From a virus (taxonomy: Duplodnaviria > Heunggongvirae > Uroviricota > Caudoviricetes), in the IMG/VR virus record IMGVR_UViG_2568526749_000005: a stretch of DNA of 4,653 nucleotides; one strand, given 5' to 3'. The notes under the pieces were generated by a model, which made no database searches, had not been told where the DNA came from, and worked only from the letters and a program-made list of their open reading frames with translations. Made by a program: the position numbers and the translations under genes. Below are positions 1 to 4,653 of this stretch, one piece after another; positions within the stretch are counted from its first letter, which is position 1; every line of letters starts with the position of its first letter.

Positions 1-62
1 GTTGTTCTGAGGTGAGCATATCACCTCTGTTCAGGTGGCCAAATTCAGTAAACCACTTCAAA
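1..62. repeat. Left copy of perfect 62-bp terminal inverted repeat (IR-L)
   Basis: Positions 1-62 are the exact reverse complement of 4591-4652, checked base by base; identity breaks at 63/4590. Contains an internal 7-bp stem palindrome GAGGTGA (9-15) / TCACCTC (21-27) with a 5-nt loop. Confidence 0.95.
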
Positions 63-87
63 CTTAAATGGTCAGCAGCTTTATGGA

Positions 88-336
88 TTGTTAGTTGGTG
101 GTGGCATCATAAACGCAGCAGTATTAGCGGGGATGCTAAAAACGGCTGCGTTTGTTGTTCCTGCTGCTGGTGTCGTAGGAGGAGCTGCGAAGGCATACGA
201 AAGCCCTGTTATACGAAATGCCTTGTTACGTCTGGCAAATACGCCAAAAGGTAGCACAGCATATGACAGAGCGATCAGTACGGTCACACAATCGCTCACC
301 AGAGTCGCACAGGCATCACAAAAAGAAGCTCAATAA
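88..336 (+). CDS. ORF remnant, unknown product; Gly/Ala-rich hydrophobic segment then hydrophilic tail. Probably the 3' end of a longer gene
   Basis: Frame 1 is open from 52 (just after TAA at 49-51 inside IR-L) to the stop at 334-336. No convincing start: TTG at 88 has no SD, and ATG at 133 has GGG directly abutting it. The other two overlapping ORFs (12-254 plus, 81-299 minus) look less protein-like. Confidence 0.3.
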   Translation: MLVGGGIINAAVLAGMLKTAAFVVPAAGVVGGAAKAYESPVIRNALLRLANTPKGSTAYDRAISTVTQSLTRVAQASQKEAQ

Positions 337-353
337 CTGGCAGCCACGGATGG

Positions 354-704
354 CTAATTTTTATTCTTTGATCTCGTCCACAGGTAAAGAAGAGCAATGG
401 CAAGACAGGAAACAGAGAATAGATAACCTACCTCATATGGTGCGCCAAAAAAATTAGCTATTGATACGGGCAAAAAAGCCGAAGCGATCAGAATTGAAAG
501 GCAAAAAATAAGCCCAGTAACATAGTTTATTAAACTCTTAAATGAGAAACGTTTTGCTTGATTTACGGTCTCAGCGAGTGATCGCTTAACGATGGATAAA
601 AGCAAATAGATGGCGACAGTAGCTAATGCCCCTTTCCACCAGTCTGGATATAGTTTTGCGACAATCAGCCCAAGGAAAACCATGATGACAGACTGAGCAT
701 TCAC
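354..704 (-). CDS. Small integral membrane protein (about 116 aa, 3-4 predicted TM helices); possible superinfection-exclusion-type protein
   Basis: ORF with GTG start at 702-704 preceded on the minus strand by AAGGAGG (complement of 711-717) at 6-nt spacing. The sequence is strongly hydrophobic. It is divergent from the 880-1904 operon. No family recognised. Confidence 0.5.
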   Translation of the reverse strand: MNAQSVIMVFLGLIVAKLYPDWWKGALATVAIYLLLSIVKRSLAETVNQAKRFSFKSLINYVTGLIFCLSILIASAFLPVSIANFFGAPYEVGYLFSVSCLAIALLYLWTRSKNKN

Positions 705-783
705 ACCAACCTCCTTAGTTTTGCGCAGGATACCAGATGATGTATAGGAGTGGGAGTAAAGTTAGTCGGTGATAGAACGGTGG

Positions 784-812
784 TTGCATAATGATATCAC
801 GTGACGTAAACT
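784..812 (+). promoter_or_regulatory. Putative sigma70 promoter for the 880-1904 operon
   Basis: -35 TTGCAT (784-789), 17-bp spacer, -10 TAAACT (807-812). The spacer holds a perfect 8-bp palindrome TCACGTGA (797-804). The GCATAG motif recurs downstream. Confidence 0.3.
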
Positions 813-879
813 TATTGCGCATAGCGTGTATTCAATGGATGCATAGCTATTGATAATCTCCGATAAGAAGGAGGTTTGT

Positions 880-1446
880 ATGAGCAATGAGACTAATGGG
901 ATTGATGAAATGTTTAGCTTGAACGCTGCCAAAGCTGGAGTCGCAATAGGTTTGCTATTACAGCAAGCTTCTGCGTTCAGTTGTGAGGTGGTTGTTACTG
1001 ATAACGTTCAGCACGCTTACCATCAATCCTCATTCAGCAGTGAACGGGCTAATGATGAGCTTCATGAGGCGGTGTCTTCGATTAAAGAATTGTCTCGAAT
1101 GCTGAAATACGCTTATCGTGTTCTTGCAAACGCTACCGATGAGAATGTAGACAATGTGTTGTCTATCATTGAACCAGAAAAGTCTCGATTGATAGAGCAT
1201 CAATTGAGAGGACTTGAAGGGGCAATGAAATCGGTATTCAAAGAAGCTTCTGCTGATTTTAAAGAGATCGCAAGAGATATCTATATCGTTGTTGCTGATG
1301 CCAGATCTGCCGTAACCAACCTGAATAGTCTTATTAAACAACGCTCATGTGTTCCGGTTGTTTTTGATAGTTCCGTAGATATGGCTGGTTTGCGTGCGCT
1401 TGCTGAGCACGGGACTCGTGTGTTTCACTCTGGTAACTTCCACTGA
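880..1446 (+). CDS. Hypothetical protein (188 aa), predicted mostly helical; no family recognised; upstream partner of the YafO-like gene
   Basis: ATG at 880 preceded by AGGAGG (869-874) at 5-nt spacing. The stop TGA (1444-1446) overlaps the SD of the downstream gene. Confidence 0.7.
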   Translation: MSNETNGIDEMFSLNAAKAGVAIGLLLQQASAFSCEVVVTDNVQHAYHQSSFSSERANDELHEAVSSIKELSRMLKYAYRVLANATDENVDNVLSIIEPEKSRLIEHQLRGLEGAMKSVFKEASADFKEIARDIYIVVADARSAVTNLNSLIKQRSCVPVVFDSSVDMAGLRALAEHGTRVFHSGNFH

Positions 1447-1454
1447 GGTAAAAC

Positions 1455-1904
1455 ATGCAAGTAACCGTGGAATATAATCAGGATAGTTTTGACTATTTTT
1501 TCTCCCCGGTTTTTGTTGAGTTTCCTGATTTAAAACAAACACTTGTAGATGATTTTATCATCTACAAGTCTACGGGAACGTTGCCCAGCTATTTTGGCAG
1601 AGACACCTCTTATCATCGACCTCCTGATATTGAAGATGCAGGCCTTATGCACCTTCATTTAGCAATTGGTGAAAATAAATTTGAGCCAATAAAAAATGGC
1701 ACAGATATCAGCACACCGCAAAAGTTGCAGTGGCATAAAACATCCAATACCGCTCTCGTTTATGCACAAAATCTTTTTGATGAGAACAGGTATTCATTGA
1801 TTGCTCTTTTTCATCCTGTAGCTCACATGTCTGCTAACAATCATAATAGAATGAGAGTGTTAGCAGGGTATGCGAGAGACTTTAGAAACACTATGTTTGA
1901 CTAA
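1455..1904 (+). CDS. YafO-family toxin-like protein (ribosome-dependent mRNA interferase family), 149 aa
   Basis: ATG at 1455 with GAGG (1445-1448) 6 nt upstream. Resembles my recollection of E. coli YafO in several blocks (DFIxYK..G.LP..FGRD.SY, H.HLA, LVYxQ..FDE, LIA, NN..M). Followed by an intrinsic terminator. Confidence 0.6.
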   Translation: MQVTVEYNQDSFDYFFSPVFVEFPDLKQTLVDDFIIYKSTGTLPSYFGRDTSYHRPPDIEDAGLMHLHLAIGENKFEPIKNGTDISTPQKLQWHKTSNTALVYAQNLFDENRYSLIALFHPVAHMSANNHNRMRVLAGYARDFRNTMFD

Positions 1905-1927
1905 ACCCACCGTCAGGTGGGTTTTTT
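1905..1927 (+). terminator. Rho-independent terminator after the YafO-like gene
   Basis: Stem ACCCACC (1905-1911) / GGTGGGT (1916-1922), loop GTCA, then a T-run through 1927. It lies between convergent genes (1455-1904 plus, 1953-2489 minus). Confidence 0.7.
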
Positions 1928-1952
1928 ATAAGGAGTAATCATGATTTACCCA

Positions 1953-2489
1953 TCAAACAACCCACCAGTTTGCCTGATTGGATGCCAGCCTTGCAGTTTT
2001 TATGGAATTAATTATGCCATGCTCAAGAGCCTTGTTAGCATCCAAAATGGTCGAGTCTGCTATCAGGGATGCCCACCTAATATGGGTTCCGATGTCGATA
2101 TTGAACGTCTCAACGAAGCGATCAAGATCGTTATCGAGGCATTTCCCGTACTCTCTCAATCTGGCATGGTCGGCGGCTGGGGAGGCAAAGCACCATAATA
2201 GAGGATGTAACAGGAATCTTGATAATGGGTTTGCGAAACGTTCTGAGCCAGCCAGGAAAACGATATTAGCTATGGATTCAACATTGCTTATGTTGTGAGT
2301 TCTAACGGTAACAGGGAGTGACTTAAGAAAGTTATACGCAGTAAAGCCAGCAGCAGTTTCCCCTCCCTGACTTGATATATGGATATTTAATTCAGTTGCG
2401 CCTTGAGATAATGCGGTGAGACAGTGGTTCTGAAGTTGCCCAACAGTGGCAGTGTTAACAGGGCATAAGAAATGAATTGTGTGCAGCAT
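1953..2489 (-). CDS. ClpP-fold (S14-like) serine protease homolog, 178 aa
   Basis: Aligns to the ClpP core as I recall it: IHISSQGGETAAGFTAYNFL vs [20 protein letters not shown], a Ser in NVESIAN aligned to catalytic Ser in GQAASMG, LLHP vs MIHQP, and C-terminal EHGIINSI vs EYGLVDSI. Its ATG (2487-2489) overlaps the mnt stop (2489-2491) as TAATG. Confidence 0.7.
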   Translation of the reverse strand: MLHTIHFLCPVNTATVGQLQNHCLTALSQGATELNIHISSQGGETAAGFTAYNFLKSLPVTVRTHNISNVESIANIVFLAGSERFANPLSRFLLHPLLWCFASPAADHARLREYGKCLDNDLDRFVETFNIDIGTHIRWASLIADSTILDANKALEHGIINSIKTARLASNQANWWVV

Positions 2490-2737
2490 TATTTTTCATC
2501 CTTAGCATACATGGTCTTTAGCGTCTCAAGTAGCGCCTCTTTGAATTTATCAGCTTCTTGCTGAGCAAATGACTCAACTGACTTTGGCGACCTATCTTCA
2601 TCAATCGCGGCTTGCAAAATCATGACGATCTCGGAGTTAACAGAGCGACCATTTTTTGATGCTCTGACAGCAAGAGCCTCGCGTAAAGATTCAGGGATTC
2701 TTACCGTAGTTGGAGAAATTGACACACCCTTTGCCAT
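2489..2737 (-). CDS. mnt: Mnt-like ribbon-helix-helix repressor (82 aa)
   Basis: ATG at 2735-2737 with AAGGTG SD on the minus strand. Similar to P22 Mnt (RIPESLREALAVRASKNGRSVNSEIVMILQAAI vs FRMPMEVREKLKFRAEANGRSMNSELLQIVQDAL). Divergent from arc. The ORF track extends to 2779, but that N-terminal extension has no homology. Confidence 0.75.
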   Translation of the reverse strand: MAKGVSISPTTVRIPESLREALAVRASKNGRSVNSEIVMILQAAIDEDRSPKSVESFAQQEADKFKEALLETLKTMYAKDEK

Positions 2738-2851
2738 ATAACACCTTTGGTATTCAATTTGATAGCAAAGTGTATGCAAAAAAATTTTGACTAGATATAC
2801 TCACTTTGCTATCTTTTGTATTCGAAAAGAGTTGTTTGCGTGGAGGGTAAC
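2738..2851. promoter_or_regulatory. Divergent mnt / arc-ant promoter-operator region
   Basis: Perfect 12-bp inverted-repeat arms GATAGCAAAGTG (2761-2772) and CACTTTGCTATC (2802-2813), 29 bp apart. Candidate Pant: -35 TTGACT (2787-2792), 17-bp spacer, -10 TATCTT (2810-2815), overlapped by the right arm. A TTGCAT -35 candidate for Pmnt sits on the minus strand (complement of 2774-2779). Confidence 0.55.
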
Positions 2852-3004
2852 ATGGAGAAAGAAATAAGTAAGATTTTGGTAAGGATGCCGCAGTCGTTAA
2901 AGGATGCTATCGGTAGCAGGGCAAAGGAAGAGTGCAGGTCGTTTAACTCAGAGGTTATCAAGCGCCTGATAGACAGCCTGAAGAGAGAGGGGGTAACGGT
3001 GTGA
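2852..3004 (+). CDS. arc: Arc-like ribbon-helix-helix repressor (50 aa)
   Basis: ATG at 2852 with GGAGGG SD (2842-2847). Similar to P22 Arc (VRMPQSLKDAIGSRAKEECRSFNSEVIKRLIDSLKREG vs LRWPREVLDLVRKVAEENGRSVNSEIYQRVMESFKKEG). Confidence 0.75.
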   Translation: MEKEISKILVRMPQSLKDAIGSRAKEECRSFNSEVIKRLIDSLKREGVTV

Positions 3005-3174
3005 TTCGCTTGGATGCAGTAGTCAAAGAGATTGCGATTACCATTTTAAGACCAAATTTTGTTCATGGCGAATCATTTGGCACGAACGAAAAATTGAGAA
3101 GAGAAAGAGTATTCAGTGGCAAGCGCACGTTTTCAGAAGTGATGCTTGATGCGGCAAAGAAATCAAAACAGTGA
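3001..3174 (+). CDS. Possible small ORF (57 codons) translationally coupled to arc; speculative
   Basis: GTG at 3001-3003 overlaps the arc stop (GTGTGA), with GAGGGGG (2987-2993) 7 nt upstream. Open frame to TGA at 3172-3174. No homology recognised. It overlaps the predicted sar-like terminator, so it may be non-coding. Confidence 0.15.
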
Positions 3175-3236
3175 AGCCCCAACTGCTGGAACAGTCAGGG
3201 CTTCGGTTGTCGGTAAATCCGTGGAGAAAAACCAAC
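3157..3236 (-). ncRNA. sar: Predicted sar-like antisense small RNA covering the ant ribosome-binding site
   Basis: Minus strand has an extended -10 TGcTATACT (complement of 3243-3251) placing the start near 3236. A minus-strand-specific hairpin follows (complement of 3173-3204, 13-bp stem with two G-U pairs, 6-nt loop), then the U-rich tail ACUGUUUUGAUUUCUUU (complement of 3156-3172). This matches the known P22 sar arrangement (about 69 nt, antisense to the ant start). Confidence 0.35.
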
Positions 3237-4139
3237 ATGAATAGTATAGCAATTTTAGAAGCAGTGAACACCTCTTACGTGCCATTCAACGGTCAGCAAA
3301 TTATCACCGCCATGGCTGCCGGAGTTGCATATGTTGCGATGAAGCCAATCGTTGAAAACCTCGGAATGAGCTGGTCAACGCAGCAAACAAAACTCATGAA
3401 GCAGATTAGCAAATTCAACTGTGTTCATATGAACATGGTTGCCGCTGATGGTAAGCTTCGTAAGCTACTCTGCCTTCCTTTGAAGAAGTTAAATGGATGG
3501 CTGTTCAGCATCAACCCTGAGAAAGTTCGTGCTGACATCCGCGATAAACTGATTCAGTACCAGGAAGAATGCTTTACTGTGCTGCATGACTACTGGACAA
3601 AGGGAGAGGCAGCAAATGCACGGAAGAAAACATCTGTTGATGACAGGACTCCGCTTCGTGATGCTGTAAATATGCTAGTCAGCAAAAAGCATCTAATGTA
3701 CCCAGAAGCTTATGCAATGATTCATCAGCGTTTCAATGTGGAAAGTATTGAAGAGCTTGATGCATCTCAGATACCACAAGCAGTAGAGTACATCCACAGG
3801 GTAGTGCTTGAAGGTGAGTTCATCGGCAAACAAGAGAAGAAAACCAACGAGCTTTCTGCAAAAGAAGCAAACAGCCTTGTATGGCTATGGGATTATGCCA
3901 ACCGCTCACAGGCATTATTCCGCGAACTGTATCCGGCGCTAAAACAAATTCAATCGAACTATTCCGGCAGATGTCATGACTGCGGTTATGAGTTCTCCCG
4001 TATTATCGATATGGCGAGAGACGTTTTAATCAATCACACACGAGATGTTGATATCAATGAGCCAGACGGACCAACGAATCTTTCCGCATGGATGAGACTT
4101 AAGAATAAAGAATTACCTCCTTCAGTACATAATTACTGA
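3237..4139 (+). CDS. ant: Ant-like antirepressor (300 aa)
   Basis: ATG at 3237 with GGAGA SD. The N-terminus [26 protein letters not shown] matches my recollection of P22 Ant. Position after arc is as in P22 immI. The ORF-track start at 3171 is a GTG upstream extension. Confidence 0.85.
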
Positions 4140-4157
4140 CAGATAACCAACGCAACG

Positions 4158-4181
4158 ACCCAGCTTCGGCTGGGTTTTTTT
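4158..4181 (+). terminator. Rho-independent terminator after ant
   Basis: Stem ACCCAGC (4158-4164) / GCTGGGT (4169-4175), loop TTCG, then a T-run to 4181. Confidence 0.7.
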
Positions 4182-4239
4182 ATGCCCAAAATTCACCGTG
4201 GCCATGCTGCGGCGATTCTTTGCATCTGGAGCAAATTAA

Positions 4240-4608
4240 ATGACAGACATTACAGCCAATGTGATTGTATCGATGCCTTCGCAACTCTTCACTATGGCGC
4301 GTTCTTTTAAAGCCGTAGCCAATGGCAAAATTTATATCGGTAAAATTGACACTGACCCGGTAAATCCTGAAAACCGGATTCAGGTTTATGTAGAGAACGA
4401 AGACGGCTCTCACGTTCCTGTTTCGCAACCAATCATCATTAACGCTGCTGGTTACCCTGTATATAACGGACGGATTGCCAAGTTCGTAACTGTGCAAGGC
4501 CATTCTATGGCTGTGTACGATGCGTATGGCGTACAGCAGTTCTATTTCCAGAATGTGCTGAAGTATGATCCTGATCAACTACGGCAGCAATTTGAAGTGG
4601 TTTACTGA
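4240..4608 (+). CDS. P22-type tailspike N-terminal head-binding domain only (122 aa); truncated relative to a full tailspike
   Basis: [43 protein letters not shown]...[15 protein letters not shown]...NVLKYDPDQ closely matches the P22 gp9 N-terminus. GGAG SD at 4228-4231. Similarity ends at DPDQ; the last codons FEVVY and the TGA stop (4606-4608) lie inside IR-R. Confidence 0.85.
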
Positions 4609-4653
4609 ATTTGGCCACCTGAACAGAGGTGATATGCTCACCTCAGAACAACA
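4591..4653. repeat. Right copy of the terminal inverted repeat (IR-R)
   Basis: 4591-4652 is the reverse complement of 1-62. Position 4653 (A) would pair with a T one base before the window start, so the full repeat may be 63 bp or more with 5'-TG...CA-3' ends. Same internal palindrome at 4626-4632 / 4638-4644. Confidence 0.95.

Follow-up and report, generated by a model that had tools for sequence, protein, structure and literature searches.

The 4,653-nt stretch of viral DNA examined here (hereafter the window; IMG/VR record IMGVR_UViG_2568526749_000005, Caudoviricetes) contains two adjacent open reading frames (ORFs), ORF1 (880-1446, 188 aa) and ORF2 (1455-1904, 149 aa), both on the plus strand, which form an obligate, mobile unit. 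ORF2 is a YafO-family protein, and a member of the ORF1 family lies directly upstream of a YafO-family gene in 37 of 37 complete loci. On balance, this unit is probably a toxin-antitoxin-type moron in which ORF1 represents a new antitoxin family and neutralises ORF2. Its host is a defective P22-like prophage of pathogenic Escherichia coli, in which it occupies an immI-region hot spot for the exchange of cassettes, between gene 16 and mnt. The toxin family and its annotation were already known and the module has not gone unnoticed; the novelty lies in the partner, which forms a family of its own that is obligately tied to a YafO subfamily and starts with a signal-like N-terminus, and in the hot spot for cassettes.

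The YafO-Family Protein and Its Partner

A preliminary description of this DNA had likened the 1455-1904 product to YafO-family toxins and had set a profile hidden Markov model search as the check. This search assigns ORF2 to the Pfam family YafO_toxin (PF13957; E=3.4e-22, 78.9 bits against a gathering cutoff of 25), the match covering positions 3-101 of the 101 positions of the profile. YafO of E. coli K-12 is experimentally toxic, and ORF2 shares 38% identity with it over 120 aa (BLASTP, E=7e-20). The motifs DF.YK..G.LP.FGRD, H-x-H-L, LVY, DE, LIA and P..H are common to both proteins and are invariant in the alignment of the subfamily. Unlike K-12 YafO, however, ORF2 begins with a subfamily-specific, aromatic N-terminal extension of ~28 residues; it is furthermore acidic (isoelectric point, pI, 5.7), and a sequence search of the PDB revealed no relative. 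The Prokaryotic Genome Annotation Pipeline names the protein “type II toxin-antitoxin system YafO family toxin” and RefSeq already annotates the toxin in 55 complete E. coli genomes. YafO has been placed in the RelE/ParE BECR superfamily, with the antitoxin gene preceding the toxin gene (PMC11980606).

For the upstream gene, it had been claimed that its product is not an antitoxin of the YafN/RelB/DinJ type and cannot be assigned to any described family, and this holds. Profile searches with ORF1 returned no Pfam, NCBIfam or PADLOC family, and an alignment of the ORF1-family profile (33 sequences) with K-12 YafN reached an hhalign probability of only 0.3%. The sole family match is phrog_8416 (E=2e-96), for which no function is known; PADLOC-DB v2 gave just a coiled-coil-like match to the tail of ZorA (E=0.004, 14 bits). 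No relative of ORF1 was found in a sequence search of the PDB or in a close-family pattern scan of genome contigs, and a pattern scan from P0022 found nothing. The family is of low diversity, as a set of 1.84 billion proteins contains no more than 23 representatives of it at 50% identity, and the named members that we examined are all “hypothetical” in both NCBI and UniProt. The exact ORF1 protein occurs on at least 1000 contigs, including those of extraintestinal pathogenic E. coli (ExPEC)/K1 strains such as S88 and the avian pathogenic E. coli (APEC) strain APEC O1. Literature searches for experimental work on this partner family returned none.

The AlphaFold2 (AF2) model of ORF1 is all-helical (predicted local distance difference test, pLDDT, 73). 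In every clade of the family a signal-peptide-like N-terminus is joined by a disordered linker to a helical bundle, and the C-terminus is formed by a strongly conserved motif. This motif (residues 160-188, VFDSSVDMAGLRALAEHGTRVFHSGNFH; window positions 1357-1443, plus strand) is the best-conserved part of the protein across all clades. It is poorly ordered in the monomer model (pLDDT 45-61), and we consider it a candidate region for binding of the toxin.

Pairing, Co-Evolution and Distribution

The 37 loci, which represent ~28 distinct sequences, were searched for independently from ORF1 and from ORF2. The searches that started from the toxin side found the partner in six of six cases, and no orphan of either gene was seen among the 37 loci. 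Pairwise identities within the two families are correlated (r=0.89, Mantel p ~ 2e-4). Of the two proteins, the toxin has diverged less in 97.5% of the comparisons, which is the usual pattern for toxin-antitoxin pairs. In E. coli SF-088 (L030) a deletion of one nucleotide, the sole indel found, removes the first ~42 codons of the toxin as annotated and leaves ORF1 intact. Loss of the toxin before its partner is what one would expect if a toxin-antitoxin pair decays, although this is a single case that may reflect a sequencing error.

The pair has been found in Escherichia, Salmonella, Enterobacter, Proteus, Pseudomonas and Gilliamella, including clades of the Proteus and Gilliamella types, and is present on 15 IMG/VR contigs; three further loci were reached from the toxin side. 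Its genomic positions are unrelated. It occurs in P22-like prophages of Salmonella, and the neighbors on both sides vary between phages. In phage HK639 it separates the tape-measure gene from a minor tail gene, and in phage PhiR40_1 and Pseudomonas phage D14L it is located at or near the genome end, with an integrase gene close by in D14L. On other contigs it lies between the Q antiterminator and holin genes or between Mu-F/DUF6246 and the tape-measure gene, and at one non-phage site it is inserted between the genes for a GntP permease and MarC. In the E. coli ATCC 11775 prophage the sequence is 99.7-100% identical to window positions 57-4597, and in ExPEC/APEC strains (S88, APEC O1) the region of the module (750-1950) is identical. 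Of 5426 complete E. coli genomes, 55 carry full-length copies of both genes (≥99% identity), even though insertion sequence (IS) elements break the prophage.

A siphovirus-like contig (L042) with tail tube and tape-measure genes carries an immI block of the mnt/arc/ant type directly beside the ORF1-YafO module. The module and immI may travel together outside the P22-like phages.

Operon Anatomy

ORF1 is preceded by a strong ribosome-binding site (RBS), AAGGAGG (868-874), located 5 nt before its ATG. The two genes are separated by 8 nt, and the stop codon of ORF1 (TGA, 1444-1446) overlaps the RBS of ORF2 (GAGG, 1445-1448), which is followed by the ATG at 1455-1457. This coupling junction (1444-1457, plus strand) is read directly from the sequence and agrees with the tight coupling, with a stop overlapping the Shine-Dalgarno sequence, that had been noticed before. 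Both the pattern TTYCAYTGAGGTnnnnn(A/T)TG and the spacing of 8 nt are found again in the closer clades. They are also retained in distant homologues and the junction is, therefore, not a product of chance. In most homologues the start codon of the toxin is TTG.

The genes had also been credited with a promoter and a terminator of their own, and these two claims fared differently. The terminator stands: an intrinsic terminator, consisting of a hairpin and a T-run (1903-1930), lies between the cassette and the convergent ClpP-like gene. The hairpin (1903-1924) with its T-run has a folding free energy (dG) of -14.9 kcal/mol on both strands (z -3.4), and phage Emek has the same sequence, annotated there as a rho-independent terminator. 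The consensus scanner overlooked it, since some of the T-run is taken up into the stem. This terminator is part of the phage backbone, common to other Lederbergviruses. The promoter is less certain. The upstream region (742-879, plus strand) is a block of 138 nt that is conserved in the alignment with Salmonella relatives (L025-L028) and contains a plausible -35 (TTGCAT, 784-789) and -10 (TAAACT, 807-812) at a spacing of 17 nt, both read from the sequence. A second set of hexamers (ATGATA, 791-796; TATTGC, 813-818) is a candidate too, but the consensus scanner called no promoter upstream of ORF1. The region may function as a promoter, and the claim is only weakly supported.

Within the same conserved block an inverted repeat (GTGATA, 769-774; TATCAC, 795-800) flanks the candidate -35 and possibly represents an operator. 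A search of Rfam yielded no family within 742-1930. ORF2 itself contains a 13-bp hairpin (1541-1569; dG -17.7, z -5.4) that is terminator-like on the minus strand; 8-9 bp of it are kept in Salmonella relatives and it is lost in L015. We considered it as a regulatory RNA but rejected this, as the codons for V-D-D-F-I-I-Y account for most of the hairpin and as it has decayed in L015.

The immI Region as a Cassette-Exchange Hot Spot

The module had been proposed to lie in the sie/immI neighborhood of a P22-like phage, and the gene content of the window agrees with this: gene 16 lies on its left and mnt, arc, the sar RNA, ant and the tailspike gene lie on its right. A comparison with the Lederbergviruses Emek, phiv205-1, E212 and EC.P3 (L038-L041) delimits the exchangeable cassette, i.e., the regulatory region with ORF1 and ORF2, to positions 742-1902 (plus strand), since window positions 700-741 and those from 1903 onward are common to all of them. 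Between these boundaries the sister phages carry a gene with a Panacea domain (PanA/SocA, PF13274; E ~1e-24), followed by an uncharacterized gene of 140-161 aa. The slot between gene 16 and mnt in P22-like phages is, therefore, a cassette-exchange hot spot of the immI region.

The Panacea cassettes and the ORF1-ORF2 cassette share the slot, its boundaries and the terminator, and in both cases two genes are involved, the one upstream in the Panacea cassettes carrying the antitoxin domain. The slot thus swaps two-gene cassettes with an antitoxin-type gene first, which provides independent support for considering ORF1-ORF2 a toxin-antitoxin-type cassette. The likeness does not extend to the sequences. 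ORF1 has no Pfam match to Panacea and aligns with the Panacea protein of Emek at an hhalign probability of 0.2%, and ORF2 is unrelated to the downstream gene of Emek. The position is also that of the moron and exclusion genes of P22 (immI/sieA), which are found in the same neighborhood of gene 16, slot, mnt-arc-sar-ant and tailspike, and ORF1-ORF2 has a separate promoter-like region and a terminator, as is typical of morons. Similarity of ORF1 or ORF2 to described exclusion proteins was, however, not found.

Proposed Mechanism and the Points Against It

We envisage a self-contained, horizontally mobile two-gene cassette that acts as a moron in the immI hot spot of a decaying P22-like prophage. 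ORF2 would be an mRNA endonuclease toxin of the YafO family (RelE/BECR superfamily) and ORF1 its dedicated partner, produced first and in excess from its strong RBS; translation of the toxin would be coupled to that of ORF1 and start from a weak GAGG site, which the stop codon of ORF1 overlaps. Neutralisation most likely occurs by direct binding, in which ORF1 would contact the toxin with its C-terminal motif (residues ~160-188); the helical bundle (residues ~55-156) would stand in for the DNA-binding domain that antitoxins usually have. The lysogen would probably benefit by being protected, either by abortive infection or by exclusion of incoming phages, or the prophage would be stabilized.

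Two features of type II systems are found in this module: the genes are adjacent and co-oriented within one operon (8-nt gap and a single terminator after ORF2; 37/37 loci), and they co-occur obligately and co-evolve, with no orphan and an r of 0.89. A third is missing, i.e., a DNA-binding antitoxin domain (ribbon-helix-helix, helix-turn-helix, Phd/YefM or AbrB) that autoregulates the operon. This and several other observations weigh against the proposed mechanism. ORF1 has no recognizable DNA-binding domain, its fold matches only generic helical bundles, and it is about twice the size of typical antitoxins. ORF2 scores 79 bits against NCBIfam equivalog PRK09885, for which the cutoff is 153; by this score it is no orthologue of K-12 YafO and belongs to a separate subfamily. 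With 15 sequences as input, AF2 reached only a pLDDT of 53 (predicted template modelling score, pTM, 0.40) for ORF2, which is too poor to confirm a RelE-like (BECR) fold. No defense model of PADLOC-DB v2 matched ORF2, and neither protein fits any PADLOC model of a defense system. The most serious point comes from the N-terminus of ORF1: its layout resembles that of Sec signal peptides and lysine and arginine are depleted directly behind it (see below), and if ORF1 is exported its mature form would be unable to sequester a cytoplasmic toxin.

The N-Terminus of ORF1 and Alternative Readings

A hydrophobic, signal-peptide-like segment at residues 19-34 of ORF1 (AGVAIGLLLQQASA, followed by FS and then by the conserved Cys35; window positions 934-981, plus strand) is its most unusual feature, and one that the preliminary description had missed. 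It fits poorly with a simple cytoplasmic antitoxin and is the main obstacle to classing ORF1 as an ordinary one. Its recognition is based on heuristic metrics applied across the ORF1 family, with the toxins as a negative control. In all clades the n/h/c layout of a Sec signal peptide is recognized, with a short and usually basic n-region, 9-12 hydrophobic residues and small residues at -3 and -1. The N-terminus comprises 15-27 uncharged residues with a best 9-residue hydropathy of 1.7-2.8. Nearly all members of the family agree with these heuristics, although the clade of the window has an acidic n-region, and the toxin controls do not.

Two further readings of this N-terminus were rejected. 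Met11 is near-invariant in the family, which suggests alternative starts in some clades. An internal start at this position can nevertheless be dismissed in general, as in most clades it is the first ATG that has the strong, conserved RBS, and only a few clades probably start at the equivalent of Met11. Cys35 is unlikely to mark a lipoprotein, since AFSC is a marginal lipobox and the corresponding ALHC, AIPC and AMYC of the HK639 clade are no lipoboxes.

ORF1 could be exported or membrane-bound. If the partner is truly exported, it would be either periplasmic, after cleavage, or attached to the inner membrane on its outer face, and the module would span two compartments, a reading that we consider unlikely. 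In one variant, neutralisation by the partner would be limited to its precursor in the cytoplasm, and its short life would be due to export and not to proteolysis; in another, the partner would serve as an envelope sensor or exclusion factor beyond the cytoplasm, with the toxin under some other control. Apart from the layout itself, export is supported by the distant clades, in which the segments are textbook-like (MANHSVINSAILAALFAFSSQA followed by DE and MNSLYAIKLATLCGVLAQPGAMA followed by ET) and YafO genes follow there too. Moreover, the sequence of the segment differs from clade to clade while the layout is kept, as expected for signal peptides, lysine and arginine account for 4% of the 12 residues past the putative cleavage site compared to 12% in the rest of the protein, and a variable, disordered linker follows the segment. 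However, the acidic n-region of the window's own clade (net charge -1 to -4 in 5 of 6 sequences; P0003 has +1) disfavors Sec targeting. The hydrophobic core GLL(M/L)QQ is nearly invariant in the closer clades, where Cys35 is also unusually conserved, and this exceeds the conservation usual for signal peptides. A segment of ~16 residues with an internal QQ is too short for a stable membrane anchor, and the family alignment shows no consistent cysteine pair in the mature part. With the partner exported, it is also not obvious what would inhibit an RNase toxin in the cytoplasm, yet the gene pair is stably maintained.

The most specific form of this idea, a Sec-exported or membrane-released antitoxin that is active only as a cytoplasmic precursor and is removed by export instead of by Lon/Clp proteolysis, seems quite unlikely to us. 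A search of the literature on antitoxins with signal peptides provided no precedent, and we know of no described case of an antitoxin that is removed by export. If it were true, the toxin would be released once the products of the operon are no longer made, or upon a disturbance of secretion or of the membrane state, for example by an infecting phage, and the module would form a toxin-antitoxin or abortive-infection switch that is read out through the secretion machinery.

It is very unlikely, in our view, that the module is no toxin-antitoxin system at all and that the YafO-like protein is a non-lethal RNase or regulator, with ORF1 as an accessory (a localization factor or chaperone) that does not neutralise it. 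This reading draws on the fact that the toxicity of ORF2 is here predicted from its family, and on its acidic nature and its aromatic extension, which K-12 YafO does not have. However, ORF2 has kept the motifs of a protein known to be toxic, the upstream partner with translational coupling and the toxin-first decay in SF-088 match toxin-antitoxin behavior, and the same slot holds a toxin-antitoxin-type cassette in sister phages. Still less credible is the idea that ORF1 is a third-party adaptor or chaperone and that the real antitoxin is an RNA of the locus or a small unannotated peptide. The strong hairpin in the 5' part of ORF2 could point to such an RNA, but the codon constraint and the decay noted above argue against it, as does the lack of an Rfam match in this part of the window. 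No additional conserved ORF was detected, and the cassette is only two genes wide in every context.

We return to ORF1 as the probable neutralising partner of a YafO-family toxin. The proposal that the upstream gene represents a new class of antitoxins is supported in part: the co-occurrence in 37/37 loci, the correlated divergence and the Panacea pair in the same slot speak for it, whereas the signal-like N-terminus does not fit a cytoplasmic antitoxin.

Relation to Described Systems and Significance

The closest described system is yafN-yafO in the dinB operon of E. coli K-12. Apart from the shared Pfam family and motifs of the toxins, the two systems have the order of antitoxin and toxin genes and the close spacing in common. 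The upstream proteins, however, are unrelated: YafN is of the Phd/YefM type and has 97 aa, whereas ORF1, with nearly double that length, has a helical bundle and a signal-like N-terminus. The setting differs as well, since ORF1-ORF2 is phage-borne and mobile whereas yafN-yafO forms part of the SOS-regulated dinB operon.

Non-canonical partners of YafO-family toxins have been encountered before. A survey of E. coli reported 13 clusters of partners for YafO-family toxins, of which 8% are known and most are unknown (PMC10790755). These labels are purely computational; they show that numerous upstream partners of E. coli YafO-family toxins are non-canonical. A RAST-style record of phage PhiR40_1 labels a distant member of the partner family “YafM antitoxin,” likewise a computational label without experiments, and a survey of Pectobacterium genomes lists a “YafO/YafM” system, the partner of which may or may not be related to ORF1. 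Surveys of Pseudomonas prophages list the toxin as an orphan, and the paper on APEC yafNO apparently deals with the canonical yafN-yafO pair and does not mention prophages. The published sources that we compared mention neither the family-wide signal-like N-terminus nor the cassette hot spot.

To our knowledge, the YafO toxin family has no solved structure and only a single characterized type of partner, YafN. If ORF1 is confirmed as a neutraliser, it would constitute a new antitoxin family for YafO toxins and would explain the “orphan” YafO toxins of the prophage surveys. The signal-peptide-like N-terminus, if real, would mean that control of the toxin is connected with protein export or the cell envelope. 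In P22-like phages the hot spot flanked by gene 16 and mnt is, furthermore, a practical place to seek more defense or addiction cargo. The module is common in sequenced clinical isolates and the system is, therefore, easy to test.

Other Features of the Window

The left part of the window consists of the end of gene 16 (encoding a DNA-transfer protein; to position 336, plus strand) and a hydrophobic membrane ORF of 116 aa at the position of sieA (354-704, minus strand), which has no family match. Phages share the RBS and 5' region of this ORF (700-741) but not the body of the gene, which encodes 107-297 aa in relatives; this suggests a second variable slot.

To the right of the cassette, a gene for a ClpP-like serine protease of 178 aa (1953-2489, minus strand; Pfam CLP_protease, E=2e-11) begins at the end of the Mnt-like ribbon-helix-helix gene (2489-2737, minus strand) and both are, therefore, probably co-transcribed from the mnt promoter. 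The ClpP-like gene is present in phiv205-1 and EC.P3 and is lacking in Salmonella relatives. We considered it as a third component of the module, e.g., a protease acting on the antitoxin, but rejected this on account of its distribution, as Salmonella relatives have the module without this gene and phages with the Panacea cassette have this gene without the module. Further downstream are arc (2852-3004, plus strand), a small ORF of 57 aa between arc and ant (3001-3174), the sar antisense RNA (3170-3236, minus strand; Rfam RF00262, 83.9 bits), which lies just upstream of ant as in P22, ant (3237-4139, plus strand), and the head-binding domain of the tailspike (from 4240, plus strand).

The ends of the window (1-62 and 4591-4652) are perfect inverted copies of one IS end. 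This sequence underlies the annotated IS911 of phage Sf6 and is present in 4020 of 5426 E. coli genomes. For the fragment at 57-4597 this means either that two inverted IS copies interrupt gene 16 and the tailspike gene or that the contig merely broke at IS ends; in both cases the prophage is defective and the cassette is intact. In the ATCC 11775 prophage (locus L001, 12713-15015) an ISEc12 of the IS21 family is found near the start of the tailspike gene, ~28 nt into the tailspike ORF of the window, and this insertion is an IS event distinct from that bounding the window.

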